64,000 bases of DNA from an uncultured Pseudomonadota bacterium (lineage in GTDB: Bacteria; Vulcanimicrobiota; Vulcanimicrobiia; Eremiobacterales; Eremiobacteraceae): the NCBI GenBank assembly GCA_963736005.1, contig CAVTNB010000003.1, positions 1 through 64,000 of the forward strand, read 5' to 3'. The notes under the pieces were generated by a model. That model searched no databases, was not told the origin of the DNA, and was given only the letters and a program-made list of their open reading frames with translations. Positions within the stretch are counted from its first letter, which is position 1; every line of letters starts with the position of its first letter. Below, one piece after another: positions 10,131 through 32,588 of this stretch. The translations under genes and the position numbers were made by a program.

Positions 10131-11804
10131 ATGGCCGATAGGGCGCCTCCTATTCCGCTCACGATGTCGCGTTTTGAGGATGTCTTTCCGACTCTAACGC
10201 CCGCTCAGCTCGGTCGCATTGCGATGCATGGCCGGACTCGCCCAATTCAGACTGGTGACGTTCTCGTCGAATCAGGAGACTCAGCTGTTCCGTTCTTTAC
10301 CGTCATTTCAGGCGAGCTCGAAAGTGTTCGTCCCTCAGCGACCGGTGATACCCTCGTTGCCGTCAGCGGGCCTGGGCAGTTTACGGGAGAGGTCAACAGC
10401 GTATCGGGCCGCAGCGCCATGTTCAGGCTACGCGTTTCCCAGCCCGGTGAGGTGATTGAACTCAACCATCAACAATTGCTGGGTCTTGTTCAAACGGACG
10501 AGGAGCTCGGGGAGATTTTGATGCGCGCCTTCCTTCTCCGGAGGGCGGGCTTGGTGGCGGCAGGCGTGGGGGATGTGGTGCTCATTGGGTCATCGCACTC
10601 GGCTGAAACGCTGAAGCTCAAAGAATTCTTGATGCGCAACGGTCATCCTTACTCCTATTTAGACCTTGAGCGAGACCCCGACGTTGAAAAAATGTTGAGC
10701 GGCTTTCATGTCGCAGCGAGCGACATACCGGTAGTAATCTGTCGGGGTCAAAATGTGCTGCGCAACCCCACCAACCAGAAATTGGCGGAGTGTCTGGGTT
10801 TTAACATCACGGTCGACCAAACCCGTACTCGCGATCTTGTCATTATCGGAGCCGGACCCGGCGGATTAGCTGCTGCGGTGTACGCCGCCTCAGAAGGGCT
10901 AGACGTTCTGATGTTGGAGACCACTTCGCCTGGCGGTCAGGCCGGTGCAAGCTCTCGAATCGAAAACTACTTAGGATTTCCAACCGGCATTTCTGGTGAG
11001 GAGCTCGCCACTCGGGCCTATAACCAGGCGGAAAAATTCGGAGCGCAAATGCTCATTGCCACGGGAACCCGACTCGCCTGCGATCCCAGGATGCACATCG
11101 TCGAAGTAGACAATGGAGCTCGCATCCAGGCGCGCAGCGTCGTGATTGCGACCGGCGTGGAATACAGAAAACTCGCATTAAGCAATTTATCTCGCTTTGA
11201 GGGCGCGGGGATCTACTACGGTGCAACGTTTGTTGAGGCCCAGCTCTGCGCGGGTGACGAAGTGATTGTCGTCGGCGGAGGAAACGCCGCGGGGCAAGCC
11301 GCCATCTTCTTGGCGCAAACAACGAAGCGCGTGTACTTGGTCGTCAGATCGGGAGGCTTGGCCCAGACCATGTCACGCTATCTGAGCCGCCGGATTGAAG
11401 AAACTCCCTCGATTGTATTGACGCCGCACACGGAAATTGTGGCTCTCGAAGGCCAAGATCATCTCGACTCAGTCCGATGGCGCAACAACCAGACTGGCGA
11501 TGTCGAAGACCACGCTATTCGACACGTTTTTTTGATGATGGGCGGCGTACCGAACACGGGGTGGCTGAACAACTGCGTCGTTCTTGACGCGAAGGGCTTC
11601 ATCAAGACGGGTTCTGAGCTGTCACCGGAAGACCTGAGCTCTGCTCGTTGGCCGCTTCCGCGACCACCATTTTTGCTCGAAACCAGTTTGCCGGGCGTCC
11701 TCGCAGTGGGTGACGTGCGAGGCGGGAGCGTCAAGCGCGTTGCGTCTGCTGTAGGCGAAGGATCGATCGCCATTTCATTCGTTCATCAAATACTCCAAGA
11801 ATAG
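10131..11804 (+). CDS. Cyclic-nucleotide-binding domain fused to thioredoxin-reductase-like FAD oxidoreductase
   Basis: N-terminal cNMP domain (GPGQFTGE), GAGPGG, IENYLGFP, GGGNAA, GDVRGGSVKRVASAVGEG; GGAGG RBS. Confidence 0.9.
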   Translation: MADRAPPIPLTMSRFEDVFPTLTPAQLGRIAMHGRTRPIQTGDVLVESGDSAVPFFTVISGELESVRPSATGDTLVAVSGPGQFTGEVNSVSGRSAMFRLRVSQPGEVIELNHQQLLGLVQTDEELGEILMRAFLLRRAGLVAAGVGDVVLIGSSHSAETLKLKEFLMRNGHPYSYLDLERDPDVEKMLSGFHVAASDIPVVICRGQNVLRNPTNQKLAECLGFNITVDQTRTRDLVIIGAGPGGLAAAVYAASEGLDVLMLETTSPGGQAGASSRIENYLGFPTGISGEELATRAYNQAEKFGAQMLIATGTRLACDPRMHIVEVDNGARIQARSVVIATGVEYRKLALSNLSRFEGAGIYYGATFVEAQLCAGDEVIVVGGGNAAGQAAIFLAQTTKRVYLVVRSGGLAQTMSRYLSRRIEETPSIVLTPHTEIVALEGQDHLDSVRWRNNQTGDVEDHAIRHVFLMMGGVPNTGWLNNCVVLDAKGFIKTGSELSPEDLSSARWPLPRPPFLLETSLPGVLAVGDVRGGSVKRVASAVGEGSIAISFVHQILQE

Positions 11805-16893: not shown

Positions 16894-17931
16894 CTACGTC
16901 TTTGAGCTTCCGAAGTGGGCCGCAGGCACCATCGAGCGGCTACGCGTACGGCGCTGCTCGAGGGGGCGCACGATGGCATTCTCAATCGCCCGGTCGAAGA
17001 CGACCTTCGTGAGAAAACTATCTGCGGCAGCAAGGCCACGCGAGCCCGTCACTCGTCGAAGAGCGCCTCGAGCGCGTCCGAAAAGGCGCATCCGATGACT
17101 GTCGCGGAAGTGGCGATGGACTGCGAAGTCCTCATCGGTGATGCTGAGCCGGTGTTTTTCGGCGAAACGCTGTATGCTTGGTTCCATCCACATATTGCTC
17201 CATCGCAAGAGAAAACACGGCAGATCAGACCATGAGTATGGTGGTGGCGCGAGGTGTGTGACAACAGCCGCCGGCTCAATATAGACCGAGCCCCCTGCAT
17301 TGACAACCCCAAGACAAAAATCATTGTGGTCTAAGAATGAAATAAGGCCTTCATCAAGCGGACCGAGGTGGTCGAAGACGTCTCTCCGTACTAACATGCA
17401 GTGAAACTCAACCAGATCGATGGGTTGGCGGATGAGCTGCGCACGCACTCGCGAAACCGGCGTGTTTCCGAAGCGATGACGCTCGTGCAGGCGCCGAAGT
17501 CCGTGTTCTTCAACGATCTTGAACTCAGCGCCGGCGGTATGGATGATTTGTTTCGCAGGGTCATCGATGAGATACAGGGGCCCGACTGCCCAAGCACCTG
17601 TTTCTTCGGCACAAGCAACGAGTTTGTCCAGCCAGCCCGGCGTGACGCTCACGTCGTTATCGACGAACGCTACATATTTCGTGCTCACGTGGGGTAAGCC
17701 GAGATTGCGCGCTTCGTTCGCCCCGAGATAGTAATCCGTTCGAATCAGCGTAAATCCACGCTTGGCCGCTTGGTCTCTGAGATAGCGGGCCAAGGCAGGT
17801 GGGGAATTTCCATCGATGTAGACCAGCGGTACGGCTGGATTCGTGCAAGTAAGGATACTGTCAAGCGAGATCTTCGCCTTGCTAAATTGCTCTCGGGGCG
17901 TAATGACAATAGTAGTTGCAGGTTCAGGCAT
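16894..17931 (-). CDS. Glycosyltransferase family 2
   Basis: ITPRE, YIDGNS, ARNLG, AFVDND (DxD), VEFHCML, DHNDF; ATG 17931 overlaps upstream stop. Confidence 0.85.
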   Translation of the reverse strand: MPEPATTIVITPREQFSKAKISLDSILTCTNPAVPLVYIDGNSPPALARYLRDQAAKRGFTLIRTDYYLGANEARNLGLPHVSTKYVAFVDNDVSVTPGWLDKLVACAEETGAWAVGPLYLIDDPAKQIIHTAGAEFKIVEEHGLRRLHERHRFGNTPVSRVRAQLIRQPIDLVEFHCMLVRRDVFDHLGPLDEGLISFLDHNDFCLGVVNAGGSVYIEPAAVVTHLAPPPYSWSDLPCFLLRWSNMWMEPSIQRFAEKHRLSITDEDFAVHRHFRDSHRMRLFGRARGALRRVTGSRGLAAADSFLTKVVFDRAIENAIVRPLEQRRTRSRSMVPAAHFGSSKT

Positions 17932-18985
17932 CGCGTTCCGCCTGCAAAGCGACCCGCGGCGTCGCCGATGCACCCGCGAGCCTTTGTCTCTCGAGGCGAG
18001 CGATGATCGTCGGTTCGAGCACGCGCTCAAACAGCGCATCGATCAACCTATCTGCGATCCATCGTCCCCGCCAGCCCATCGTGCGCTGCGCTGCTCTCTG
18101 CACAATATGCAATAATCTTCGCCGCTCGGCGTTTCGGAAACGAACACCACCTTGTAACATGTAATCGTTTTCGCTCAGACGCCATTTCTTTGCAAAGTGA
18201 CTAATGCTTGGGCGAAGCCACACGTCGCTCCATCGGAGCAAGAACAGAGCAAGATCCGACCATGCAAATGGTGGCGGGGCGACAATCACGACCACCGCAT
18301 CGGGTTCCCAGTATATGGAACCCCCGGCTTGCGTAACGTCGAGGCAAAAATCGCGATGCTCTTGGAACGAAGTGAATGCTTGATCAAAAGCTCCGAGACG
18401 GTCAACCACATCTTTTCGAGTCAGCATGCAATAGGACTTGGCGTAGCCGCAGAGACCCCGTTTCAACCCCCCGCGCACGTCGGCGAGTGGCTTGCCGGCA
18501 AAAGGGGCCGTCTCATAGAGACGACGCTCGCCTTGTTCATCTATGATCTTGAGATCCGGACCGGCCGAATAGGTGATCGGCTCTTCCAAGTCACCAGTGC
18601 AATACAGAGGTCCCACGACCCAAGCTTGCGTCTCCTCCGCGCACCGGATGAGTGCTCCCAACCATCCGGGTGTGACCAGCGTGCAATTGTCAAGAAAAGC
18701 AACGTACTTGGTCCGGACGTGACGCATGCCGATATTGTGCGCTTCGCTCGACGTTAGATAGCGGTCGCACCGAATGAACGTAAAGTTTCGCTTGCGGGCT
18801 TGTTCTTGAAGATAGCGACGGACGTGCGGCGGTGAGTTGCCGTCAACATAGACCAGCTCAAAGGGTGGCTGCGTGAACGCATAGATACTTTCTAGCGTGG
18901 CCTTTGTGGCGCTGAAATGTTGCCACGGCGAGACGATGATCGTGACGCTCTGATCGGGCATCAGTTGCGCGCTCGGGCTTACCAT
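17924..18985 (-). CDS. Glycosyltransferase family 2 (paralog of 16894-17931, DxD altered)
   Basis: YVDGNSPP, AFLDNC, VTPGWL, EHRDF; ATG 18985 overlaps the SDR stop. Confidence 0.8.
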   Translation of the reverse strand: MVSPSAQLMPDQSVTIIVSPWQHFSATKATLESIYAFTQPPFELVYVDGNSPPHVRRYLQEQARKRNFTFIRCDRYLTSSEAHNIGMRHVRTKYVAFLDNCTLVTPGWLGALIRCAEETQAWVVGPLYCTGDLEEPITYSAGPDLKIIDEQGERRLYETAPFAGKPLADVRGGLKRGLCGYAKSYCMLTRKDVVDRLGAFDQAFTSFQEHRDFCLDVTQAGGSIYWEPDAVVVIVAPPPFAWSDLALFLLRWSDVWLRPSISHFAKKWRLSENDYMLQGGVRFRNAERRRLLHIVQRAAQRTMGWRGRWIADRLIDALFERVLEPTIIARLERQRLAGASATPRVALQAERDA

Positions 18986-19803
18986 CGGATTACCTTGCCG
19001 TCCCACCAAAAGAGTCCAGTGGCGCTGCTCGGTGAGCGCGTCGCCAGAAAAAACACGGTGTCGGTGGAATCCGCAGGATCGATTTCAGCATTTGGACCGC
19101 CGATCTTCGTCTTGACCCACCCGGGATGGACGCAATCGACCATCACTCTACGGGCTCGCAGGTCTGCCGCCAACGATTGGGTGTAAGAGTTCAATGCTGC
19201 CTTACTGAGACGATACGCAGGCGCGTCACCATCCGATTTGCGCGACAACTGACCCATCACCGAAGAAATATTGATGATACGGCCGCCTTTCGCCATGATC
19301 GGAGCGAACGCAGCGCAAGCGTGCAGCGCGCCGTAGAGATTGACGGCAAGCGTGCGCTGGACGACTATATCATCGATGGCGCTTGCATGCATTTCTCGGT
19401 CCTCATCGAGAAACACACCCGCGTTGTTGACGAGGATGTCCACTCTTTCATATTGTGTGCCCACGTCGAGGGCGAGCTTCCGCACTTGAGATTCGTCGCT
19501 GACGTCAGCGATGCGCAGATCGACGCGCAGGCCTTGCGCCGCAAGTGCATCCACCGCGGCACCTCCTTCGGGATCGATGGCAACGAGAATGCAGCGAGCC
19601 CCCGCGTGCGCAAATGCACTTGCGATTGCCAGACCGATACCACTGCTTGCTCCCGTGATGACGGCAACTTTGCCCTTGAGCGCGTTGCCTGCAGCGATAT
19701 TTCTTTGTACACGCTGAATTCTCGAAGCCGCAACTTGCGAACGAGCTGACCCGTAAAGTCTCCCAAGGAGGGCGCGAGCCCGCGTCATCGCAACTTTAAA
19801 CAT
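18979..19803 (-). CDS. Short-chain dehydrogenase/reductase (carbonyl-reductase-like)
   Basis: TGASSGIG, NNAG, YRLSK (YxxxK), HPGWVKT. Confidence 0.92.
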   Translation of the reverse strand: MFKVAMTRARALLGRLYGSARSQVAASRIQRVQRNIAAGNALKGKVAVITGASSGIGLAIASAFAHAGARCILVAIDPEGGAAVDALAAQGLRVDLRIADVSDESQVRKLALDVGTQYERVDILVNNAGVFLDEDREMHASAIDDIVVQRTLAVNLYGALHACAAFAPIMAKGGRIINISSVMGQLSRKSDGDAPAYRLSKAALNSYTQSLAADLRARRVMVDCVHPGWVKTKIGGPNAEIDPADSTDTVFFLATRSPSSATGLFWWDGKVIRW

Positions 19804-20042
19804 CCATTGTGTCAGCGATCGAAGCCGAAGCTGCCATAGTCACCTTTTTTTCGCTCGGTCTTTGCGTATTCCCGTGCCCGGGCAAGCCCATGAACCAAGT
19901 TGGCGTGAGCGAATGGGACCTCCGACAATAGGGAGTTGGGCTGATGGCTCCATGCGGGCCAAACGTCCTATTCGCCGCACTAAAAAGTCAAGTTGTTCTT
20001 TCCGGCGAATTCATTTTGACACACTTATGTTTGGGAGAGCTT

Positions 20043-20456
20043 ATGCTGCGGAGTGAGCGAGTAACCCAACGTTACGCGTTTCGACCTGACGTTGTTGCGA
20101 CCATGCTCGAAGATGGAGCGGTGCTGCTCGATCTCGACACCAAATATTTCTATCGACTGAATCGAGCAGGTTGGGCCATCGCCCAACTCTTCGAGACTGG
20201 TGCAACGTTGCAAGACGTGCATGCCTACTGTCAGACGTTGGGCGCTGCTTCCTCAGATGCGGACGCCATCAGTTCGTTGGTTGAGGAGCTCTCACGCGAC
20301 AATCTCATCGAAGCGGCGAGCCAGCCGGGGGACGAGCCGGCGCCACGAGAGCCCTTGTCGGTTCCTTGGTCGACGCCCACCATCGAGAAACAAGCAGAAC
20401 CCATGCAGCGTGTTATCATCAGCGCATTCGATCCAAGCGTGCCGCTGGTGGAATGA
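20043..20456 (+). CDS. PqqD-family RiPP recognition element (lasso B1-like) with C-terminal leader-like extension
   Basis: ATG 20043 after GGGAGAG; EDGAVLLDLDTKYFYRLNRAGWAI...SLVEELSRDNLI fits the PqqD/RRE pattern; ~45 extra residues follow. Confidence 0.85.
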   Translation: MLRSERVTQRYAFRPDVVATMLEDGAVLLDLDTKYFYRLNRAGWAIAQLFETGATLQDVHAYCQTLGAASSDADAISSLVEELSRDNLIEAASQPGDEPAPREPLSVPWSTPTIEKQAEPMQRVIISAFDPSVPLVE

Positions 20457-20465
20457 GCACGAGCG

Positions 20466-21470
20466 GTGTCCCTGATCCGCGATGAAATCATAGCCAGGGA
20501 TTTTTGCTGCGGTCCTCTTCAAATAACGCTGCGGGCACAAGACGCCGATCTGTACGCTAAGATCGGGGAGACGTTAGAGCTCTACGATCTTACGTGGGCG
20601 CCGCCACGTCGGCCGGTCAATATCTACGCTCGCAAATCGAATGCCCGTACGCCCGTCTCGAATGGCGATTACCTGCGCTGTGCTCGCATGCTTGTCGACC
20701 ACGTGCCCGCTGGCCTTAACGCATCGACGACCTCGGGTGCGCGCGCGACAGCAACCTTCACCGACCTCGGTGAAACGTGGCACCTCACTGTTCCCGACAG
20801 CCTCGTCGAGGCGGGGAAGCTCGAAGAACTCGAAGACGTCGTTAGTCTCGTTCTAACGACCGGCTGGAGACGCGGTGGTTGGACGCCGATTCACGCCGCC
20901 GCAGTGCTCAAGGAGCAGAGGTGCGTGCTCGTTTGCGCTCCGACCGGAGGCGGCAAGACGACATTAACCGCTGCACTGGTGAGGCGTGGCTGGCAAGTGC
21001 TAGGCGATGACAAGATCCTGCTCCGCATGCGCGACGGGCAGCCTGAGGTTGCGGCACTCTTACACACGTTCAATCTCCACCCAAAGAGCCGCGAATGGTT
21101 CCCAGAAGTGGGCGACCTCGAACGGCTGCCGCGCTATTCTGTGTGGACTGAAAAACGCAAAGTTAGCGTCGTCTCGATTTGGTCGCATGCGCCTGCACAG
21201 ATTGCCATGCCGTCTGTGCTCATCTCCTTGCAGCGGAGCATGGACTATGTCAATGCGCTCATCGAGCCATTAAGCCAGCCCGAGGTGTTGACGACCTTGT
21301 TGAAGCAAACCGTGATACCATCTGACCGCGCGACCGCCAGCGGCATTGTCTCGACCGTGGCGCGTACATCGACGCATTTGCACGGTCTGTCCGTCCAGGT
21401 TCCGACAGATGCTTACCGCGATCCAGCCTTCCTGGCGGCGCTCGAAGGCGCGATCGAGCAACTGCGGTGA
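20466..21470 (+). CDS. HPr-kinase-related P-loop kinase (lasso-cluster kinase type)
   Basis: IHAAAV...APTGGGKTT...LGDD motif set. Confidence 0.8.
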   Translation: MSLIRDEIIARDFCCGPLQITLRAQDADLYAKIGETLELYDLTWAPPRRPVNIYARKSNARTPVSNGDYLRCARMLVDHVPAGLNASTTSGARATATFTDLGETWHLTVPDSLVEAGKLEELEDVVSLVLTTGWRRGGWTPIHAAAVLKEQRCVLVCAPTGGGKTTLTAALVRRGWQVLGDDKILLRMRDGQPEVAALLHTFNLHPKSREWFPEVGDLERLPRYSVWTEKRKVSVVSIWSHAPAQIAMPSVLISLQRSMDYVNALIEPLSQPEVLTTLLKQTVIPSDRATASGIVSTVARTSTHLHGLSVQVPTDAYRDPAFLAALEGAIEQLR

Positions 21471-22375
21471 CAACCGTTAGCGTCATCGTTCCCGCTTACA
21501 ACGCAGCTCCGACAATCGGCGCAATGCTCAACGCACTCCTGCATCAGATCGACGCACCTTCGAACCTCGAGATCATCGTGGTCGATAACGGCTCGACCGA
21601 TGGTACGCGCGAGGTAGTGCGACGCTTCTCGGGCGTCACGTTGCTCGCTGAAAGCAAGCGCGGCCCATCAGCGGCACGCAACCGCGGCTTGCACGACGCA
21701 ATAGGTGACCTCATCGTCCACCTTGACGCCGACACGTTGCCAACACGTGCCTGGCTAAGAAATCTCATCGCGCCGTTTTCCAAACCTGAAGTCGTGCTCG
21801 CTGCTGGCCGAACACTGATCTTCCATCCGACCACTGCAGTCGAACGCTACATCGCGGGCGCTGGGTTGTACGAGACGGATCGGGCCATTAGCCGGTTGCC
21901 GTTCCCGTTTGTGCCCTCACTCAACATGGCGGTCCGTCGAAGCGCGGCAGTCAGCATAGGGGGTTGGGCTGAAGACCTGACGACCGCTGAAGACGTCGAC
22001 TTCTCGCACCGCCTACTAAAGATGTATCCTGTCGACATCGCCTATGCTTCGAACGCGATACTTTTTCATCGCGTCCGCGCCACGCAACCGGAGCTCGTGG
22101 CGCTTGCGCGCTCGTACGGCCAAGGCATAGCGCGGATGTATCATCGCTATGGCGACGAAGTGGGCTGGGATGCCATCAAGACCGCAAAGATCAAGAGCCG
22201 GCTTGCGCTACGCGCGCTCATCACGGCAACGTTACGCTGTGCCCAAGCAGTCCGACTTGCCACGACTGCGCAAGTTGAATTCTCCCACTGTCATTTCGTA
22301 TGGTCACGCAACTTCGCTCAAGGCTTTTTTGACGAGTACTATCAGCAACAGCAAACTGCGGTGACACGGTGGTAG
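21467..22375 (+). CDS. Glycosyltransferase family 2
   Basis: VIVPAYN, VVDNGSTD, ARNRG, LDAD, AEDVDF; GTGA overlap with the kinase. Confidence 0.92.
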   Translation: MTTVSVIVPAYNAAPTIGAMLNALLHQIDAPSNLEIIVVDNGSTDGTREVVRRFSGVTLLAESKRGPSAARNRGLHDAIGDLIVHLDADTLPTRAWLRNLIAPFSKPEVVLAAGRTLIFHPTTAVERYIAGAGLYETDRAISRLPFPFVPSLNMAVRRSAAVSIGGWAEDLTTAEDVDFSHRLLKMYPVDIAYASNAILFHRVRATQPELVALARSYGQGIARMYHRYGDEVGWDAIKTAKIKSRLALRALITATLRCAQAVRLATTAQVEFSHCHFVWSRNFAQGFFDEYYQQQQTAVTRW

Positions 22376-22380
22376 GGGGC

Positions 22381-22866
22381 ATGCTCGCGCCCAAATGGAC
22401 ACCGCTCGGATTTGCGCAGCGACTGCGGCGGATCTTTCGCGAGCCTTCAGACTTTTGGTTTGCGGCGACGATGTGCCACTTCATGTGGCACGCGCCCGAG
22501 ATGCTGCGCCGGCGTAATATGCGCGTGTTTCTCGACGAGCTACGTGCGCTTCCGCGACCCAAGGCAACCAGTGCCGAGGCGAGTTTGGAGAGGGTCCAGC
22601 GTCTGCGCCAACTCTGTCTTCGCCTCAAGGTGCTGCGATCGAGAGACAATTGCTACGTCCGTGCCCTCACGTTGTATCGCTTTCTTGACACGGGGCCGGA
22701 CCACGTCAGCATTCATTTTGGAATCGAGCAAAAAGAAGACCCGTTGGAGCGATTGCGCGGTCATGCGTGGGTCTCAGTCAATGGAAGACTCTTTGAGGCA
22801 CCGCCGGACGGCGTGCTGGCAAGAACTAAAGAGGTGCCTCTGGCTCCTGCGGACCTTCGCCAATGA
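22381..22866 (+). CDS. Lasso peptide B2-type transglutaminase-like cysteine peptidase
   Basis: NCYVRAL...FG...GHAWV...E/D, matching the Cys-His-acidic triad pattern of Transglut_core3; ATG after GGGGG. Confidence 0.88.
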   Translation: MLAPKWTPLGFAQRLRRIFREPSDFWFAATMCHFMWHAPEMLRRRNMRVFLDELRALPRPKATSAEASLERVQRLRQLCLRLKVLRSRDNCYVRALTLYRFLDTGPDHVSIHFGIEQKEDPLERLRGHAWVSVNGRLFEAPPDGVLARTKEVPLAPADLRQ

Positions 22867-23993
22867 AAGAGCAGCGGGCAAACGAGCGAGGGGGCTTCGC
22901 CGCGCTTCTCGCGGCCACCACCGCAATCGAGCAATGCAGGCCGGACAACCTGGTCGCCGCCCTGCACATGACGCCACCCCAAGCGCTTCTCAGAGCGGCC
23001 GCGCGCCATCGCTGCCTGGGCTATCTGAGGCGTGGGATCTTGGAATTGGGCGTCCGCGATGATCGCGCAAAGGCACTTGCCGACGCGGTACGCGAGTATG
23101 CAAGCAAAGCAGCGATCCAGGCGTACGCGGTGCGCATACAGCTCAACCAGCTCGTTGAGACGCTAGACGCCGCGGCTGTTCCCTTCGCTCTCCTCAAAGG
23201 AGCGGCGCGCCTCTTTCGGGGCAACAAAGAAGCTGACTACAGTACAATGTACGATCTCGATATTCTCATTCCCAACGTTGAGGTGCACAGGGCGGCCGAC
23301 GTGCTCCAGCATGCTGGTTACCGCGCAATCGTTCCCACGCGAGCACTCGCGCGCTACTGGGCACGACATCATCACATCGCGCCGCTCCACCCACAAGGGC
23401 CGGGGCTTCCCGTCGAACTCCACGTGCAACTTGCCCGGCCCGGGATGCTCTCCATGCCGACGGACTGGCAAGCGTGCGAGCCATACTTCGAACGCGTCGT
23501 CGGACCGGCTGCCCAAGCTCAATGCCTCGATGCGCTCGGAAGCGCAGTACATCTTGTGATCCATGGCGCCGGGATCAAACGTTTGCACGACGCTACCATG
23601 CTGTCGAAAATCATGCGCAGCGACAGCGACATACCGAAACGCGTTTCGGTGGCAATTGCATCCGAACGTTGGCAGCCCGTTGCGTTGCAGTCCGTTGCGG
23701 CGTTGAGCAGCCAAATGGCAGGCTTGCAGCCCAGGATGACACCGCAGGTCGAACGCTACCTCGCATGGGTGATGCGACGTGAAGATCTTTCACCGTACGT
23801 TCGCGACCGATCGCAATTCACCGACGCATGGTACAGCAACGGGGGCAAGCTTTGGGGGCCGGCCACGCGCGAAGCTTTGCCAACCGCTGAAGCCGAACGA
23901 GACATCGTAACGTCTTCCGCGCGGTTTGTGCTGCGGCTCATCGGACGAATCATCACCGGCGTTCTCGCCGCGACGTCTATGGCGCGCTCGTGA
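22863..23993 (+). CDS. Nucleotidyltransferase family protein (NTP_transf_5-like)
   Basis: LLKG...DLDILI...VELH motifs; ATGA overlap with B2. Confidence 0.88.
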   Translation: MKEQRANERGGFAALLAATTAIEQCRPDNLVAALHMTPPQALLRAAARHRCLGYLRRGILELGVRDDRAKALADAVREYASKAAIQAYAVRIQLNQLVETLDAAAVPFALLKGAARLFRGNKEADYSTMYDLDILIPNVEVHRAADVLQHAGYRAIVPTRALARYWARHHHIAPLHPQGPGLPVELHVQLARPGMLSMPTDWQACEPYFERVVGPAAQAQCLDALGSAVHLVIHGAGIKRLHDATMLSKIMRSDSDIPKRVSVAIASERWQPVALQSVAALSSQMAGLQPRMTPQVERYLAWVMRREDLSPYVRDRSQFTDAWYSNGGKLWGPATREALPTAEAERDIVTSSARFVLRLIGRIITGVLAATSMARS

Positions 23994-25351
23994 CTTCGAC
24001 TACTCCCAGCACAACGATCGCCCAAACGAGTATGCGAACGTTCGTCGCGCGCCTGATCGTCACCGTACTCTCGGTGGTCACCGGTATCGTCGCTGCGAAG
24101 TGGCTTGGTCCCATCGGCAAGGGTGCCTACAGCGGCACGATCATGCTGGTTTCGATCGTGATGGTCGCGCCGGCCGGCATTAGTACTGCCATCACGTACG
24201 CGCTCACCAAGCAGCGTCGAGATCTCTCCGAACTCTTGCCATCTGCCGGAGTGCTCCTAGTGTTGATCTCCGCTTTGGCGTGGATCGGTGCGTTAGCCTG
24301 GGGTCTCCTGCGCGGTTGGAATCCGGTACTGTCGATCTTTGTGGCGGCCGTGCCACCCTCGATCGTACTCTCGTGGCAAGGCGGGTTGTATGTCGGCCTT
24401 GGCCGCTTACGCAATCTCAACGCGCAATTGGTAGCTTTGGCTCTCGCCACTCTGTGTGCAGTGCTCGCCGTCGTCAGCGTCTTTCATGGGAGTGCAATCG
24501 GTGCGTTGTGGGCGTGGGTTGTCTGTCTTTACGGCGCGGCCTTTGTGGTCATCTGGCATGTGTTCGCGCTTAGCCGCCGGCGCTCGCGCGCACTACCAGT
24601 TGGGCAGATCACCTCTGGTCTAGTTCGCTTTGGAACTCAATCCAGCGTGAATCTTTTCTTGGGAGCGGTGAATTACCGCATTGACTCCATCATCTTGATC
24701 GCCCTTATGGGAACCGCGACCTTCGGAATCTACTCGATTGCCGTGGGTTTCGGCGAGCAGCTTTTCTCATTGACTCGCCCCATTACCGCAGCCATCAGCC
24801 GCGATATCGGGATCAATGATGCAACGGCTTCCGCTGCTATAACGGCCAAAGTTATCCGAACCTGTACGGCTCTCGTTGCAGCGGTTTCTGTGGTCGCGTT
24901 TGTTTTTGGACCTTGGCTTATCGACGCGGTCTATGGAACGCGCTTTCGCGACGCCACGATACCCCTCCGTATCCTCATACCTGGCATCGTCGCGTTCTCG
25001 ACCGCAGGTACTTTCGCCGCCTTCTTCATCCTCCAAGTCGGGAGGCCGCTGATCATATCAGCAGTCAACCTTGCGATGATCGTGGTCCAGGCGCTCATGT
25101 GTTTCGCCCTGGTCCCTCGCTTCGGCATGAGCGGCGCGGCGTTCGCGTCAACCATCACCTACGTCTGTGGAGCGTTGATGAACACCGCGTGGTTTTGCCG
25201 AATGACGCGAACTAGTTTCTGGGATGTTTGGATCGTTCGACCCAATGACATTGAAGCAGTACGCAGAGGAATGCTTGAGAGCGTTGACTTCGCGGCACGA
25301 CGTTTGCGGCCGCGCACCGCGCAGGGCGCAACCAGGAGCGATGCTCGCTAG
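23990..25351 (+). CDS. Wzx/MOP-superfamily oligosaccharide flippase
   Basis: ~12 TM; WLGPxxxG, RIDxIIL, GIYSIA, LVPRFGMSGAAFAS; GTGA overlap with the nucleotidyltransferase. Confidence 0.85.
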   Translation: MTSTTPSTTIAQTSMRTFVARLIVTVLSVVTGIVAAKWLGPIGKGAYSGTIMLVSIVMVAPAGISTAITYALTKQRRDLSELLPSAGVLLVLISALAWIGALAWGLLRGWNPVLSIFVAAVPPSIVLSWQGGLYVGLGRLRNLNAQLVALALATLCAVLAVVSVFHGSAIGALWAWVVCLYGAAFVVIWHVFALSRRRSRALPVGQITSGLVRFGTQSSVNLFLGAVNYRIDSIILIALMGTATFGIYSIAVGFGEQLFSLTRPITAAISRDIGINDATASAAITAKVIRTCTALVAAVSVVAFVFGPWLIDAVYGTRFRDATIPLRILIPGIVAFSTAGTFAAFFILQVGRPLIISAVNLAMIVVQALMCFALVPRFGMSGAAFASTITYVCGALMNTAWFCRMTRTSFWDVWIVRPNDIEAVRRGMLESVDFAARRLRPRTAQGATRSDAR

Positions 25352-25432
25352 AGCGAGTCGTACAGACCCCGTCCCTGAGCCTCACCGGCGAAATCTGCCA
25401 GCTGTCATATCGTTCTGATCGCGGTTGCGATT

Positions 25433-28267
25433 TTGGGGCTCCTCCATCGCGCTTTCCGAAGTTTTGGGGGTCTCCTTGCGGCGCAAAGAGAAACCTTTCC
25501 CACAGTGGATACCACCACCGTTATCTTGTTATTTACGGATATCCAAGGCAGCACGACGCGGTGGGAGCGCGACCGTAGCGCAATGGGCGCAGCAGTCCGC
25601 CGTCACGACGAACTCATGAGCGCCGCGATTGCAGCATCCCGCGGACGCGTCTTCAAGACGGTGGGCGATCAATTCTGCGCATCCTTCTCTACCATCTCCG
25701 ACTCAATCGAAGCGGCTGTCCAGGCTCAGCGGGCCTTAGCGGCCGAGGACTGGAGCGCTGTCGACGGATTAAACGTCCGCATGGCTATTCACGCGGGTTC
25801 AGTCGAGGAGCGCGACGGAGATTACTTTGGTCGACCGCTCAATAAAGTAGCTCGGCTTCTCGGGATTGGTCATGGAGGACAGGTGCTGCTATCGGGCTCG
25901 GCCGCGGATCTGGTTTTGGGCGATCTGCCAGTCGACATACAACTCTCGTATCTTGGGCAACACAGACTCAAAGATTTGGAGGGCGTCGAGCGCGTGTACC
26001 AACTTCGCGCGCCGGATCTGCTCGAGGAGTTTCCGCCGTTACGATCGCTCGAAGAGTTTCCGAACAATCTTCCGCTGCAGCTCACGACCTTTATTGACCG
26101 CCAAGATGACCTCGAGCGGCTTCACAACCATCTCGAAACAACTCGGCTCTTGTCGCTCGTTGGCACGGGAGGCGTTGGAAAGACGCGGTTGACCCTCCAG
26201 CTCGCGGCCGAATCGCTGAGTCGTTTTCCGGATGGTGTGCGGCTCATTGACCTGTCCTTGGTTGGAAGTGACGACGCAGTGGCCGCCGAAGCGGCTTCGA
26301 TCTTATCGGTTCGCGCAAGCGGAGTTCAAAGCGTCACTGAGTCGATTATTCGCGCCATCCGCGACGATCGTCTCCTGTTGATCTTTGACGGGTGCGAACA
26401 CGTCTTGGCTGCCACGGCGGCGCTCGTCGACGCACTTCTCCACTCATGTCCGAAAATCAGCATCATCGCCACATCGCGTCAGGCGCTCGGTGTTGTGGGT
26501 GAGATCGTCTACAACGTAGAGACGCTTGCCGTTCCGCCGGAAGACACGGACGGTGCGACAGCGGCCTTGGGGTACAGCGCCGTCAAGCTCTTTGTGGATC
26601 GTTCGAACGCGGCATCGAGCCGTTTCACCTTAACCGATGGGAATGCAGCGATCGTCGCGCACATCTGTCGCCGCCTAGATGGCATCCCGCTTGCGCTCGA
26701 GTTGGCCGCGGCAAAAACGGCGGTCCTCAGCCTTAAGCAACTTGCGGAAAAGTTGGACGAACGCTTTCGGCTGCTGAGTCACACGAGCAGCAGTCGCCTG
26801 CCGCGTCAGCAAACACTGCGCGCACTGATCGATTGGAGCTTCGATCTGCTGAGCGAGCACGAACGGTCGGTCTTTCGACGCCTATCGGTTTTCGCCGGCG
26901 GGTGGACGCTGCAGGCCGCCGCCGCTGTGTGCGCGGACGAAAGCATTGACGAATGGCGGGTTCTCGAGCTGCTCACTGCACTCGTCTCGAAATCGCTGGT
27001 TGCCGTGGAATCGCGTGGTGACGATCAAGGCTACCGCATGCTCAATTCGATCCGAGAATACAGCCACGAGCGTTTGCTCGGGTCGAACGAGGCCGCAGAC
27101 ATCTCAGCCAAACATGCTCAATATTACGCCGGTTTCGTGAGCGGCTTCGCTCCACTCGTGACGGCACTAGAGGACGTGCAGTGGCAGCATGCGCTGGCAC
27201 CCGAGCTCGATAACATGAGAGCGGCGTTGGACTGGACGATCGTTCGTGGTAACAATGTCAGTTCAGGGCTTCGTTTGCTTGCACAGCTCGAGCACCCCGA
27301 ACTTTTGACGACGCCACAGGAAGCCATCCGTTGGTTTGATGCTGCGATGAAGTTCGTCGAAGAACCTACGGACGCGTTGACGAAAGCCCGCATTCTGCGC
27401 CACTACGTTCGGTTGGAGTGGCTGGTGGGCCGTCCGAGCACGCAGCGCGAAAAGACCGCGACCCACGAACTCACCGCCGCGCGAGCGGCATCCGATCCGG
27501 ACGAGATCGCACTCGCGCTTTGCAATCTGGCCAGCTGCTTTCGCGACTCCAAACACTTCGACGATGCTGAAAGGATTTTTTCCGAGGCGTACCAATCGCC
27601 CCGGGCGCTATCCCGAATCGCTGTGAACTCAATTTTGCGCAATTGGGCCGTGTCAGATCTTCAGCGAGGCGAGGTCGAAATGGCACGCCGGCGTTTCACC
27701 GAAGTTGCGCGTCTGGAGAGACCTGGTAGCGAGGCACACGCCAGCGCCTTGTTGAATCTGGGTGAACTCGAGTTTGCTGTTGGAAACATGCAGGCTGCGC
27801 GAGCGGCTGCGAGCAAGGCCCGAGAAACGCTCGTAACGTTAAACGCTGCGCCAATAGGACTTGTGGTCTGCAATCTCGCGGCGTACGCTCTGGCGGTCGA
27901 TGATTTCGACGAAGCCCGCGATTGGCTCCGAGAAGCGCTTCGCCTGCTAAAAAAGTCGGGCGCACGGTGGATGACCACCGCCTTGGAGCATCACGCTGTG
28001 CTGGCTGGGCTCATCGGCGATCACGAACGCGCGGCTCTGCTCGTAGGCTTCACCGACGCGCGCTACACGAACGACGATGCGCGTCAGCGAACCGAGCAAC
28101 ACGGATACGAACGCCTCATGCGACTTCTGGCGCAGATTTATGATAAGGAAGAACTCGCGGCACTGATGAGCGCTGGGGCTCGGCTTAAAGACGAGCAGGC
28201 ACTGGAGCACGCCGCGGCGATAAGCCAACATACCTCGCAAACGCTGGCGGCGAATGCCGCCGAATAG
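25433..28267 (+). CDS. Class III adenylate/guanylate cyclase - STAND ATPase - TPR-like protein
   Basis: FTDIQGST, KTVGD, DYFG..N..ARL; Walker A GTGGVGKT, Walker B FDGCEH, LDGIPLALELAA; helical repeat C-terminus; true start may be GTG 25505. Confidence 0.9.
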   Translation: MGLLHRAFRSFGGLLAAQRETFPTVDTTTVILLFTDIQGSTTRWERDRSAMGAAVRRHDELMSAAIAASRGRVFKTVGDQFCASFSTISDSIEAAVQAQRALAAEDWSAVDGLNVRMAIHAGSVEERDGDYFGRPLNKVARLLGIGHGGQVLLSGSAADLVLGDLPVDIQLSYLGQHRLKDLEGVERVYQLRAPDLLEEFPPLRSLEEFPNNLPLQLTTFIDRQDDLERLHNHLETTRLLSLVGTGGVGKTRLTLQLAAESLSRFPDGVRLIDLSLVGSDDAVAAEAASILSVRASGVQSVTESIIRAIRDDRLLLIFDGCEHVLAATAALVDALLHSCPKISIIATSRQALGVVGEIVYNVETLAVPPEDTDGATAALGYSAVKLFVDRSNAASSRFTLTDGNAAIVAHICRRLDGIPLALELAAAKTAVLSLKQLAEKLDERFRLLSHTSSSRLPRQQTLRALIDWSFDLLSEHERSVFRRLSVFAGGWTLQAAAAVCADESIDEWRVLELLTALVSKSLVAVESRGDDQGYRMLNSIREYSHERLLGSNEAADISAKHAQYYAGFVSGFAPLVTALEDVQWQHALAPELDNMRAALDWTIVRGNNVSSGLRLLAQLEHPELLTTPQEAIRWFDAAMKFVEEPTDALTKARILRHYVRLEWLVGRPSTQREKTATHELTAARAASDPDEIALALCNLASCFRDSKHFDDAERIFSEAYQSPRALSRIAVNSILRNWAVSDLQRGEVEMARRRFTEVARLERPGSEAHASALLNLGELEFAVGNMQAARAAASKARETLVTLNAAPIGLVVCNLAAYALAVDDFDEARDWLREALRLLKKSGARWMTTALEHHAVLAGLIGDHERAALLVGFTDARYTNDDARQRTEQHGYERLMRLLAQIYDKEELAALMSAGARLKDEQALEHAAAISQHTSQTLAANAAE

Positions 28268-28476: not shown

Positions 28477-30015
28477 CTAACGCAGCGCTTGCTCTATTAC
28501 ACTAGCAATCGGAACGCCCAGGCCAGTGCACGGGTCCCATCCGGCTCCGGCCTGGAAACGGCCGTTGTTTCCCATCGTGATATCGACAAACAGCGGCTTG
28601 TCAGCTTGTCGATACAGAATCGGTGAAAAGAATCCAATCGGTACACCCAGTCGTTGATTGATGCGCGCAGTGAGCGCAGACCACGCGGGCGCGACGGCGC
28701 TCGTGCCCCCTATTGCCAATTCGACTCCATCCATAACCACGTAATAGCCGGGTTGCTGCTGCGCGGCGACGTCGGGCACGCCGCGGCCGGGACTCATGCC
28801 GATTCGTGACGCTGTCGCTCGTGCGACATCTTGCCACTGCGGAACATCGAATCGCTCGCTAAAGCCGCCTCCGGTCCTTTCCCAAGCTTGTTCTTGTGCG
28901 CTGGGGTCTGACGTAATCACCGTCGCCCCACACGCAATCGCGAAGGGGCTGGATGCCGGCGCCAACACGTGCGGCTTGCCGTCGTAATCAAGCTCCGCCC
29001 CATTGTCACCGGACGAACAAAAGATGCTCACGCCCACAAGCGCGGCAACGGTGAACAAGTCATCAAGGATACCGAGCGCAACCGGCGTCCACAGATGTTC
29101 GGGCCATCCATAACTGATCGACAACACCGACGGCGCGTTCTCCTCATCGAAGAGCGCCTTCGCGATAGCATCGAGAAACCCGCGCTCGTCGTCAGGCGCT
29201 TCATACACGACGATGCGCGCCCCCGGTGCGAGTGAGCCGATGATTTGCACGTCGAGCGCTGCCTCAAGATCCTTGGTGGTCGCGATCTCGTGGGCGACTG
29301 CAGCGTCATCCACTCGCTTTACGATCGGATGAGCAGGAGTGAGGCCTTGGGCCCGCATGCATTGGTCGAAATCGCTCGGTTTGAATACACCCCGCAATTG
29401 CACGACGCCAACCGTTTGACCGGAACCATCAGCATCGGGAAACTGATAACGCGTCGCGACATCACGTGCGAACAGTGGGGTGGTGTGGCGCTGCAAAGAT
29501 CCGAGCTTGCGCGAGCGCGGCCATTGATGGAGACCGAAGATGCCGCGAACGACGGCAGCGATCTTGGAAGGAACGTGCAACGCACCCGATCGATGGCGGA
29601 AGCGCCGCTGACTGTCATCTTCAAAGATGGCGACTGTTGCACCGAAAGCTTCAACCAGTCGTTCGATGGAGCCGCTGATGGCCACGGCTCTCCAGCGTGA
29701 GTCGACGATCTTGAGATCGAAGCTCTCACAATAGCGACGCAGCAGCTCGACATCTTCGTTATCTGCGCCTGTTTGACGCGCTAGCGCTTTTCTATCTGCA
29801 TACGTGCGCTGCAGTGGCGGCGTCGCGCTAAGCGTTCGCGCGCGCGCGCGATCGAGATCTCCGCCGCGCTTCGGACGCAGCCACGCAGTCAGAAGGATGT
29901 CCGCGTCCGAGGACAGCGACTCCGCTTGATGACTTCCGGGCCAGACCTTACGCTCCGTTCCCGGGATTGGAATGCGCTTTTCTGAAGTCGTTCCTGGGTT
30001 CAGTCGTCGGTCCAA
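28477..30015 (-). CDS. S53 family (sedolisin/kumamolisin-like) peptidase
   Basis: Pro-domain; EAALD, SISYG, SSGDNG, GVPDVA, GGTS, WDPCTGLG. Confidence 0.92.
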   Translation of the reverse strand: MDRRLNPGTTSEKRIPIPGTERKVWPGSHQAESLSSDADILLTAWLRPKRGGDLDRARARTLSATPPLQRTYADRKALARQTGADNEDVELLRRYCESFDLKIVDSRWRAVAISGSIERLVEAFGATVAIFEDDSQRRFRHRSGALHVPSKIAAVVRGIFGLHQWPRSRKLGSLQRHTTPLFARDVATRYQFPDADGSGQTVGVVQLRGVFKPSDFDQCMRAQGLTPAHPIVKRVDDAAVAHEIATTKDLEAALDVQIIGSLAPGARIVVYEAPDDERGFLDAIAKALFDEENAPSVLSISYGWPEHLWTPVALGILDDLFTVAALVGVSIFCSSGDNGAELDYDGKPHVLAPASSPFAIACGATVITSDPSAQEQAWERTGGGFSERFDVPQWQDVARATASRIGMSPGRGVPDVAAQQQPGYYVVMDGVELAIGGTSAVAPAWSALTARINQRLGVPIGFFSPILYRQADKPLFVDITMGNNGRFQAGAGWDPCTGLGVPIASVIEQALR

Positions 30016-30466: not shown

Positions 30467-31516
30467 TTATTTGGTGCATGTGAGGTCGATGCGGAAGTCT
30501 GCCGGTTTGGGATAATGGGGCATGCCGGTCAGCGCGTTTTGCGTTGCGGCGTTGAAGGTGACGAGCAAGCGAACCGGCTTGTCGGTTCCGTTCAGACCAC
30601 CCCCGGCGAAGAGCTGTGAGAACGTATATGACCCGCCGGGCGGAAAAACAACATTGCGAGAACCCAGACCGAAGCCGCCTACCACGTTAAATGATGAAGC
30701 ATTGTTACCGCTCTGTGTGGCAAGAAACTCGTCGGACACATTTGATGGCGCTTCTCCCGGACCGTACAACCCACCGGGCCATAGCTTGCGATTGGTGACG
30801 TTGACCCATGTCTGCGTCACGCGCCAGCCGTTTTGGTCTTCTGGCTTCGCATCGGGTGGACTCGGCGAAAATGCGGTCACGCGCATCTTCCATACCCCGT
30901 TGCTCATCCATTGGTTCATGCAACCTGGGGTCGCAACAATCTGGTTGGACCCACCTTCCGCGTTGGCGGCCGCTCCGGTCGCGACGCAACCCAGGTTGAA
31001 GTGAAAGTTATACTTTGAGGTAGTGAACTGCGGCTTCGACTTCAATTGGGCAAGCAGTACTCCGTTGAACGTGATCTCAAGGCCCTTTGGTTTATTCGAC
31101 GGATCAACGTTGGAATTATAGAATACTTGTTTATACGTCAACTGCCCAGCGGGCGCAAACGTATTGTTGCCCACATTTGCCATTGACATACTGGCCGCGG
31201 TCGACTCCTTCACACTGATGGCACCGCTTCCGAGTTCTAGTCGCTGGTCTTGGAGCTGCGCATCGCCGGGGGAGGTTTCTCCCGACGTTCCGTTGCGCCA
31301 CACTTCGGTGACTTGCCAGCCAACTTGCTGACTACCGTTCATGTATGGCTCAACGTTCGTGACTTTCACGCGCCACACCCCATTGAAGAGCCATTGATTC
31401 ATGCAGCCCTCGCGGCTGTTCGCGTCGCCGAAACTCGCCGAACGCGCGAGCAGTACGACGCCGCAAGCAACGGCGAGAACGATGAACGACGTTGACCTTT
31501 GAATCGCGTTGCGCAC
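30467..31516 (-). CDS. Secreted hypothetical protein with two GCMNQW repeat domains (paralog B)
   Basis: GTG 31516 after AAGGAG; signal peptide; two GCMNQWxxNGVW repeats. Confidence 0.8.
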   Translation of the reverse strand: MRNAIQRSTSFIVLAVACGVVLLARSASFGDANSREGCMNQWLFNGVWRVKVTNVEPYMNGSQQVGWQVTEVWRNGTSGETSPGDAQLQDQRLELGSGAISVKESTAASMSMANVGNNTFAPAGQLTYKQVFYNSNVDPSNKPKGLEITFNGVLLAQLKSKPQFTTSKYNFHFNLGCVATGAAANAEGGSNQIVATPGCMNQWMSNGVWKMRVTAFSPSPPDAKPEDQNGWRVTQTWVNVTNRKLWPGGLYGPGEAPSNVSDEFLATQSGNNASSFNVVGGFGLGSRNVVFPPGGSYTFSQLFAGGGLNGTDKPVRLLVTFNAATQNALTGMPHYPKPADFRIDLTCTK

Positions 31517-31550
31517 CGAGGAATCTCCTTTGAAGCTCAGATCTCTAGCG

Positions 31551-32588
31551 CTATTTTGTGCACGTGAAGTCGATGCGGAAGTTTGCTGGAGTCTTATAGT
31601 GAGGTAAGCCGACGCGCGCATTCTGCTTTGCCGCATCGAATTGAACGAGGAGTTTTACTGGCTTGTCTGATGGATTAAGCGGCGCCCAGCGAAAGCGCTG
31701 TTGGTATGTAAACGAACCGCCTGGAGGAAAGGTCCGGAAAACGAGCTGCTCTTGGTTCATTGACGTTCCTGCGCTGTTTGTTGCGGGTGTATTTTGACCG
31801 CCCGCAGTAATGAGGTACTGATCCTGCATGAGAGAATCACTGGGTGCGAGTGGCCGGCTTGTGAGGTTTACCCAATCTTCCGTTATCATCCAACCGATCT
31901 GCGGGCTCGTCGGATCGTTGTTGTTGTCGGGAGCGATCGCGGTGGCGCGCATCTTCCAGACGCCATTGGAGATCCATTGATTCATACAACCCGGTATCGC
32001 GGCCATCTCGCCCGACCCGCCTTCTGCTTGCGCGGCCTTTCCGGTCGCAACACAACCCAGGTTAAAGTGGAAGTTGTAGTGCGCGCTGGTGAACTGTGGC
32101 TTCGACTTAAGCACTGCTAGCTTTGCGTTGTCGAAAATAATATCCACAGCTTGGGGCTTGTTGGACGGATCGAAGGTTGGGGCTAGGAAGATCTGCGTGT
32201 ACGTGAATTGTGCAGCCGGCGCGAAAGTATGGAAACCCACGGTCCCCATCGACAAGGTTCCTGTGTTGGTCGTCGAGGCAAGGAGCGACCCATTATTGAG
32301 CGTGAGCTTTTGGTCTTTGAGGAAGGAATCGCCGGGTGCGAGTTCTTGACTCGTGCCGTTGCGCCACACTTCGGTGACTTGCCAGCCTGACGGCGGACCA
32401 CCGTTCACATAGGGCTCGACTTTGGTGACTTGCACGCGCCACACGCCGTTGAACAGCCACTGATTCATGCAACCTTCACGGCTGTTGACATCACCGACGA
32501 CGGCCGATCGTGCGGCGAGTAGCGCCGCAATCATAATGACGGCCACAAGCGCCGTTCTCTTCATCAGGAAGTGTCGATCTTGACGCAC
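31551..32588 (-). CDS. Secreted hypothetical protein with two GCMNQW repeat domains (paralog A)
   Basis: GTG 32588 after AAGGAG; signal peptide; same repeat layout as neighbour. Confidence 0.8.
   Translation of the reverse strand: MRQDRHFLMKRTALVAVIMIAALLAARSAVVGDVNSREGCMNQWLFNGVWRVQVTKVEPYVNGGPPSGWQVTEVWRNGTSQELAPGDSFLKDQKLTLNNGSLLASTTNTGTLSMGTVGFHTFAPAAQFTYTQIFLAPTFDPSNKPQAVDIIFDNAKLAVLKSKPQFTSAHYNFHFNLGCVATGKAAQAEGGSGEMAAIPGCMNQWISNGVWKMRATAIAPDNNNDPTSPQIGWMITEDWVNLTSRPLAPSDSLMQDQYLITAGGQNTPATNSAGTSMNQEQLVFRTFPPGGSFTYQQRFRWAPLNPSDKPVKLLVQFDAAKQNARVGLPHYKTPANFRIDFTCTK

Follow-up and report, generated by a model that had tools for sequence, protein, structure and literature searches.

What does a lasso-type modification cassette act upon when it holds neither a separate precursor gene nor a lasso cyclase? 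This question is raised by six genes in a 64,000-nucleotide (nt) stretch of DNA (henceforth the window: positions 1 to 64,000 of contig CAVTNB010000003.1, assembly GCA_963736005.1) from an uncultured bacterium of the Eremiobacteraceae. The first of the six encodes a PqqD-like recognition element (RRE) of the kind found in pathways for peptides that are ribosomally synthesized and then modified after translation (RiPPs), and it bears a C-terminal tail. The reading that we favour, and to which we give an even chance, is that this 137-residue protein is a self-leadered RiPP precursor: the RRE would dock its own tail in cis, a B2-type cysteine protease would cut the tail, and the core would be phosphorylated, glycosylated and exported. 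An initial annotation of the locus had proposed that the substrate is fused in cis, with the tail as leader plus core, and each computational test named along with that proposal came out in its favour; the support is computational only.

The open reading frame (ORF) with the stop codon at 20454-20456 translates as the initial annotation gave it, its tail reading WSTPTIEKQAEPMQRVIISAFDPSVPLVE before the stop. Its most likely start is the ATG at 20043, which gives a gene at 20043-20456 on the forward strand; we chose this start because GGGAGAG lies 5 nt upstream and because, of the 115 homologues that 172 candidates yielded, nearly all have 130-145 residues and align from the Met at 20043. The longest ORF, from 19944 (170 residues), was set aside in favour of this start. 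The PqqD profile PF05402 scores the protein at 20.3 bits against a gathering cut-off of 23.4, and NF033530 (lasso_PqqD_Strm) at 32.2 bits against a cut-off of 70; a precomputed PF05402 match exists in many homologues. An AlphaFold2 monomer model built on a 103-sequence alignment (mean predicted local distance difference test, pLDDT, of 77) places the RRE domain at pLDDT 85-90, and its best Foldseek matches in the PDB are the lasso B1 proteins TbiB1 (5v1v, 5v1u) and 6jx3, with template-modelling (TM) scores of 0.77-0.80 by target length. In the model, residues 1-90 form a lasso-B1-like RRE, the best-conserved stretch of which is the strand region LLDLxTKYFYxLN. There follow a linker whose length differs among homologues, modelled at pLDDT 62-65, and then W109, whose codon lies at 20367. 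Translation and domain assignment agree with the layout first described for the protein, in which a PqqD domain of about 90 residues precedes a Pro/Glu-rich linker and the Trp at 20367.

The tail is kept across phyla, to a degree well beyond chance. A scan of one genome per species gave 98 pattern matches, of which 64 were confirmed, in 61 loci; the tails of the window and of 60 loci were aligned (n=61), and L061, a tail-less PqqD relative caught by the RRE pattern alone, was left out. The loci come from metagenome-assembled genomes labelled Eremiobacterota/Vulcanimicrobiota, Chloroflexota, Acidobacteriota, Desulfobacterota, Gemmatimonadota, Planctomycetota, Alpha- and Gammaproteobacteria, Acidimicrobiia, Spirochaetales and Myxococcota, and the tailed ones span at least ten phyla. 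All 61 tails have W109, S127, A128, F129, D130, P131, P134 and E137; P120 is present in 60, L121 and L135 in 59, and P112 in 57, the other four being Chloroflexia with WxP. Position 114 is I, V, L or M in 60 of the 61, position 124 is V, I or L, position 125 is M, I, V or L, position 126 is free, and position 132 is Ser in 50, Thr in nine and Gly in two. Since Ser132 can be replaced by Gly, Ser127 is the sole invariant hydroxyl. Averaged over alignment columns, entropy peaks in the linker at 3.0 bits, compared with 1.67 bits for the RRE, 1.37 bits over residues 109-126 and 0.30 bits over residues 127-137; in these alignments the last 11 residues are far better conserved than the RRE itself. 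Invariant tail residues are encoded by two to six synonymous codons (four for A128, four for P131 and six for L135), so what is constrained is the protein, and neither an RNA element nor the ribosome-binding site that serves the following gene. Conservation among homologues of both the WxxP segment and the SAFDPS end, which the proposal of a cis-fused substrate had anticipated, is thus borne out.

The first part of the tail looks like a lasso leader. W109-x-x-P112-x-I114 fits the [Y/W]xxPx[L/V/I/F/A] RRE-binding motif given in the available parts of PMC13381572 and PMC10368454, and the earlier identification of WSTPTI as a motif of this type holds, with W109 invariant and P112 nearly so. According to these sources, [Y/W]xxPx[L/V/I] sits at -17 to -12 in Bsf and begins at -15 in PbaA and at -16 in LppA, and the stretch that follows it forms an added strand of the RRE sheet (PMC10368454, PMC13381572). 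In the fused tail the motif lies 15-18 residues ahead of the presumed cut site. With W109 at -17 or -18, position -2 would be V/I/L124 or M/I/V/L125, a beta-branched or hydrophobic residue where Thr(-2) is usual; Ile/Val(-2) is documented in phosphorylated lasso precursors (PMC10368454). In sequence, the succession of a conserved hydrophobic residue, a free residue and the invariant Ser127 resembles positions -2, -1 and +1. The AlphaFold2 monomer has a strand at 114-117, within a block (111-120) at pLDDT of about 80 that rises out of the low-confidence linker, in line with the suggestion that the leader folds back on the RRE; residues 121-137 fall to about 50, and the 11-mer at the end is therefore not part of a fold. 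This profile corresponds to a leader that is docked, with a free core behind it, and from it we infer that residues 114-117 pair with a strand of the RRE sheet.

The tail is also placed for cutting in a predicted complex with B2. All 37 aligned B2 sequences have Cys95 and His132; the genes from L030 and L033, which contain an in-frame stop, were excluded from this alignment. Co-folding of the tailed RRE with B2 gave an interface score (ipSAE) of 0.78 (0.78, 0.76 and 0.78 in the individual runs), against 0.00 for the best of three controls; the mark that this value passes is reached by 116 of 157 solved complexes and by 2 of 215 mismatched pairs, a calibration that is rough here, our own alignments having been used. 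The runs share at least 49% of their contacts, with a partner pLDDT of at least 79. On the RRE side the interface comprises sheet residues 16-38 and tail residues 120-127, and on the B2 side residues 42-52, 91-92, 94, 96-97, 100, 118-129 and 154-158. The predicted complex sets tail residues 120-127 at the catalytic Cys95, against the flanking B2 residues 91-100, leaving 109-119 to the RRE, so that in the model the tail does reach the Cys-His site, as had been asked of it. The co-fold supports, rather than shows, binding of the RRE to B2.

Neither a cyclase nor a separate substrate was found. There is no lasso cyclase among the six cassette genes, and the regions flanking ten diverse loci contain no Asn-synthase-like gene. 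Two full-length PF00733 genes are present in the genome (2.84 Mb in 6 contigs, 84% complete), both far from either of its two cassettes (see below); each passes TIGR01536 but falls short of the lasso cyclase model (240 and 298 bits vs 525). Judged by these profiles, they are ordinary asparagine synthases and not lasso cyclases. The cyclase first noted as missing is thus absent from the cassette and from the genome as assembled. Nor is a ring-forming lasso core apparent, again as first noted: Asp130 would be core residue 4-5 and Glu137 core residue 11-12, and with no cyclase and no Asp/Glu at core positions 7-9, no lasso can form. Clustering of small ORFs from the 61 loci and the window (864 within 1.2 kb upstream and 1605 non-overlapped ones within 7 kb downstream) revealed no conserved separate precursor in or beside the cassette, in agreement with the earlier impression that none is evident; the small ORFs that are shared occur in near-identical genomes only or are antisense shadows of a gene about 6 kb downstream. 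A word search of a very large protein library found no protein of 30-74 residues that shares words with residues 98-137. A 38-position tail profile run against 1.84 billion representatives gave 30 hits, consisting of tailed RREs, N-truncated calls of them, a distant subfamily and one spurious 849-residue protein. Most of the short hits are truncated gene calls, since they retain the end of the last RRE helix (helix 3), and three (33, 44 and 59 residues) are not long enough for an RRE portion to be recognised. Two very large protein libraries yielded no clear free-standing copy of the tail and, the spurious protein apart, no profile hit exceeds 186 residues, hence there is no sign of fusion to an enzyme. 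An SpI peptidase is likewise absent from the six cassette genes and from the flanking genes scanned in ten loci.

These searches bear directly on the alternative that survives best, although we consider it unlikely: the tail would be a pseudo-leader, an option that the initial annotation also raised, and would fill the RRE cleft permanently or reversibly, either stabilising a domain that folds poorly on its own or autoinhibiting it; its invariant end would serve to activate or recruit B2, the kinase or the glycosyltransferases, and the real substrate would be encoded elsewhere. An RRE can indeed need an occupant, as indicated by the behaviour reported for LppB, which is insoluble without its leader, and for PbaB1, which is fully folded only with the leader bound (PMC13381572). 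The tail is, moreover, invariant in the manner of an interaction motif, and the 9-nt gap to the kinase gene gives no sign of extra expression. Against this reading, neither the 61 loci nor the window holds a conserved candidate substrate; the motif is seen nowhere beyond tailed RREs save in the one spurious profile hit. A protease with intact Cys and His is kept in 42 of 43 cassettes, and the co-fold brings the tail to its catalytic Cys. Finally, a leader bound in cis would compete with any substrate supplied in trans.

If the tail is instead the substrate of a self-leadered precursor, the enzymes that accompany it indicate what may be made of it. Cassette-gene profiles were run over all six-frame ORFs of the loci. 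Among the 43 loci with at least 6 kb downstream, the kinase is found in 42, B2 in 42, the PF14907 enzyme in 41 (within 7 kb) and all three in 40, and in 52 of the 53 loci with 1.2 kb or more of downstream sequence the kinase gene adjoins that of the tailed RRE. The cassette is incomplete in L012, which lacks kinase and B2, and in L022 and L031, which lack PF14907; the Syntrophobacteraceae locus L012:2705-9161 combines a tailed RRE with an EamA transporter, three family 2 glycosyltransferases (GT2) and PF14907. In the kinase, H143, GGGK164[ST] and D181-D182 are kept in 44 sequences, with H143, G163, K164, D181 and D182 invariant, and the H-to-K (21) and K-to-D (17) spacing equals that given for BsfK H148/K169/D186 (PMC10368454). 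Its AlphaFold2 model (pLDDT 94) matches PEPCK and HprK/P structures; a sequence search of the PDB returned P-loop noise alone. The same search returned generic GT2 enzymes for the GT2 protein, with no glycocin-type match, and no match for the PF14907 protein. The latter is probably of the PsmN/BsfN/LppN kind, as judged by the annotation 'uncharacterized NTP transferase'; PsmN is reported to be required for hexose addition onto the phosphate of pseudomycoidin (PMC6993621).

Features of the tailed-RRE gene, its cassette and the divergent unit upstream, in window coordinates
Feature	Position	Strand	Basis
RRE (lasso B1 / PqqD-like) domain, residues 1-90	20043..20312	+	below-cut-off profile scores, AlphaFold2, Foldseek
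Pro/Glu/Ala-rich linker, residues 91-108	20313..20366	+	variable; column entropy, pLDDT
Leader-like segment, W109-I126	20367..20420	+	W-x-x-P-x-[IVLM], then E-[KR]-[QH]-x-[EQD]-P-L-Q-x-[VIL]-[MIVL]-x
Candidate core peptide, C-terminal 11-mer S127-E137	20421..20453	+	SAFDP[STG][ILVM]P[L]..[AV]E-COOH; near-invariant
HprK/PEPCK-fold P-loop kinase, lasso-precursor-kinase type	20466..21470	+	TIGR04352 8e-11 (below cut-off)
GT2 glycosyltransferase	21467..22375	+	PF00535 6.5e-31; conserved after the kinase in the loci
Lasso B2-type transglutaminase-fold Cys protease	22369..22866	+	NF033537 35.7 bits (cut-off 33); PF13471 8e-12
PF14907 (NTP_transf_5) nucleotidyltransferase-like enzyme	22863..23993	+	PF14907 1.4e-19
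MOP/Polysacc_synt-type membrane exporter	23990..25351	+	PF13440 0.0022, weak
Divergent unit: two GT2 (16894-18039, 17924-19009) and a short-chain dehydrogenase/reductase (SDR; 18979-19803)	16894..19803	-	Pfam

The match of the window's exporter to its family is complemented by homologues in other loci that match PF01943/PF13440/MatE clearly, and the exporter type differs by locus: a Polysacc_synt/MOP protein is usual, L043 has an ABC exporter and L012 the EamA transporter. Two GT2 genes lie between the kinase and B2 in most loci and one in the window, L008, L027 and L042; at 21467-22866 of the window there is the single GT2, with overlapping ends, and the 82%-identical locus L001 has two. Synteny of the divergent unit with the cassette is found in full in L001-L003 and in part in L005 and L023 and, since it is kept in the closest relatives only, membership of this unit in the pathway is uncertain. 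A scan of 19700-25700 for sigma-70 promoters and terminators gave no promoters (1.6 expected) and three terminator-like sites (5.5 expected).

The wealth of sugar enzymes suggests a second alternative, which we judge less likely still: the tail would be an uncleaved carrier or scaffold, phosphorylated and glycosylated on the protein as a glycan primer, with B2 acting late, rarely or not at all. L012, which retains a tailed RRE, three GT2 and PF14907 without kinase or B2, would suit such a role, as would the GT2 pairs of most cassettes, the GT1, sulfotransferase and nucleoside diphosphate (NDP)-sugar enzyme that the second copy in this genome adds, and the usual MOP or Polysacc_synt exporter. 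However, 42 of 43 loci possess B2 with its Cys and His intact, and the leader-like spacing together with the predicted placement of residues 120-127 at the active site favours cutting; in addition, no priming phosphoglycosyl transferase is seen in the cassette of the window. It is very improbable that the pathway has no peptide product at all, and that a polysaccharide is made or regulated with the tailed RRE, B2 and the kinase, their RiPP role lost, serving as subunits in regulation or assembly, for although the cassette is rich in glycosyltransferases, paeninodin and linear polyphosphorylated peptide clusters are reported from capsule loci (PMC13381572) and a large adenylate-cyclase/STAND/TPR regulator lies next door, the peptide-binding strand of the RRE, the leader-type motif, the Cys and His of B2 and the lasso-type kinase motif are jointly under strong purifying selection.

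For a self-leadered precursor we would picture the following course. The RRE would bind its own tail in cis via W109-x-x-P112-x-I114, residues 114-117 would add a strand to the RRE sheet, and this docking would present the segment around 120-127 to the B2 cysteine protease. A cut near 125|126 or 126|127 would then release a peptide of 11-12 residues, (x)SAFDPSVPL(A/V)E. At about the time of the cut or ahead of it, the HprK-like kinase would phosphorylate Ser127, as its motif and the invariance of that residue suggest, and the PF14907 enzyme and the GT2 transferases would build a sugar decoration on the phosphorylated Ser127, the product being exported by the MOP (elsewhere ABC) transporter. 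Cleavage and its exact site, the acceptor residue, the chemistry and export are what we infer from the architecture, conservation and predicted docking described above. Fusion would have plausible benefits, in that an RRE unstable without a leader would always be occupied and that cognate pairing would be guaranteed, which matters here because the genome has a second, rearranged cassette.

Several observations weigh against this course. Ser132 is not essential, position 132 being Gly in 2 of the 61 tails, and WxP replaces WxxP in the four Chloroflexia tails. In a distant subfamily of tailed RREs (P0138-P0141 and P0143) the tails read [W/F]xxPxL ... [SN]PFDP[SCQ][VL]PLAE; of its five sequences, three place Ser at 126 with Asn127 after it, one retains Ser127, and the fifth, short and probably a fragment, is devoid of Ser and Thr around the junction. 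Across these alignments the deepest invariant is thus FDPxxPLAE-COOH and not the Ser. Such an invariant end is unusual for a RiPP core, since RiPP cores are usually variable, and it could equally be a docking motif for partner enzymes. The co-fold pass may partly reflect family likeness, because B1-B2 pairs are a known family whose interface has been modelled and mutated (PMC13381572). L012 has a tailed RRE without kinase or B2 on its 14-kb piece. The kinase gene starts 9 nt after the tailed-RRE gene with no attenuator, which gives no hint that the gene is expressed in excess, as precursor genes usually are. Lastly, at 84% completeness a distant precursor or cyclase of this genome could be unassembled.

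A bolder version of the same idea, to which we give somewhat less than an even chance, would make the recognition element itself the precursor in a widespread architecture: each RRE would be used once to yield an 11-12-residue phospho-glycopeptide, binding of the leader in cis would insulate two co-resident pathways from each other, and, because the peptide sequence is near-identical in at least ten phyla, the product would be a signal, a cofactor-like or an envelope-linked molecule rather than a variable antibiotic.

How does this cassette compare with known systems? The closest published one is that of the linear polyphosphorylated peptides (LPP) of Bacillota (Popov et al., Nat Commun 2026, PMC13381572). 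As far as the available part of that paper describes it, the LPP pathway is a cyclase-less relative of phosphorylated lasso pathways and has in common with ours an RRE, a kinase of the HprK-like kind, an NTP transferase and an exporter, a leader with [Y/W]xxPx[V/L], an RRE that presents the cut site to a peptidase, and clusters situated among sugar-metabolism genes; the final LPP product is given as unknown. By contrast, the LPP precursor is a separate protein (35-200 residues, variable C-termini) with an N-terminal YxxPxVLxHQxIxFETxxS, whereas our cassette fuses leader and core to the RRE and has an invariant core and a W-type motif. The LPP peptidase is an SpI-type serine enzyme (archaeal-type signal peptidase I, LppS) and the exporter is MsbA-like, where our cassette has B2 and a MOP-type protein; one or two GT2 genes are core members here; and LPP are reported as restricted to Bacillota, unlike the tailed-RRE family with its at least ten other phyla.

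Phosphorylated or glycosylated lasso systems (paeninodin; pseudomycoidin, PMC6993621; Bradymonas bsf, PMC10368454), in the parts of these reports available, share the B1 RRE, B2, an HprK-like kinase with the same motif, a nucleotidyltransferase annotated in the same way as PsmN/BsfN and, in paeninodins, W-type leader motifs. In such systems B1 also speeds phosphorylation (PMC6993621, PMC10368454). They differ from the cassette described here in having a precursor gene A, a cyclase C and an Asp/Glu at core positions 7-9. The cis-fusion of a substrate to a pathway protein has parallels in the borosins (OphMA) and in plant BURP-domain precursors: in both, the modifying enzyme carries the core peptide as its own C-terminal end, and a large protein is likewise spent for a short peptide. 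There, however, the fused partner is catalytic, whereas here it is a non-catalytic recognition domain on which separate enzymes act.

In phrase searches of open-access full text, neither a natural RRE-precursor fusion nor this cassette was found described, and the available part of an RRE survey describes no such natural fusion (PMC12710340); the same source counts 21% of PF05402 proteins as longer than a discrete RRE without another domain (PMC12710340). RiPP logic assumes a precursor peptide, a recognition element and enzymes that are separate; leader and core fused to the recognition element would, if true, be a new build. It would then also explain many 'orphan' cyclase-less lasso-type cassettes that seemingly have no substrate, and it would give genome mining a rule, namely to inspect the tails of over-long PqqD proteins. 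The target is defined and easily testable, comprising four or five genes and one 137-residue substrate.

The second, rearranged cassette of this genome lies on contig C2 (L067:4249-17678, equal to G000:C2:31248-44677). Its order is GT2, B2, GT1, sulfotransferase, PF04185 phosphoesterase and PF14907, then tailed RRE, kinase, GT2, SDR, NDP-sugar transferase and GT1. The tailed RRE of this copy has 131 residues and is 49% identical; its leader-like part is different, its core nearly unchanged. The closest relative also has both cassettes in its genome, L001 and L040, on one contig. Sulfotransferase genes stand beside the cassette at L010:8656-9543 (Desulfosarcinaceae) and, in the second copy, at L067:13943-14905, a gene content which hints that some versions of the cassette sulfate their product. 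The tail was found in 7 of 201 sampled genomes of the phylum (6 of 170 of high quality), and the cassette is therefore an accessory, patchily spread trait; patchy spread, invariant core and paired sugar enzymes together suggest that the product is an accessory one, spread horizontally.

Directly downstream of the exporter, at 25433-28267 of the window, lies a gene for a 944-residue protein that combines an adenylate/guanylate cyclase, a STAND NTPase and tetratricopeptide repeats (TPR), and which may regulate the cassette. Further along, a pro-kumamolisin/S8-S53 peptidase gene (28477-30015) is adjoined by tandem paralogues of 389 and 345 residues (30467-32588, reverse strand) without a Pfam match, each with an internal duplication (GCMNQW..NGVW motifs) and a likely N-terminal signal sequence. 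On the other side of the cassette, positions 10131-11804 encode a 557-residue protein in which a cyclic-nucleotide-binding domain is fused to a thioredoxin-reductase-like flavoprotein.

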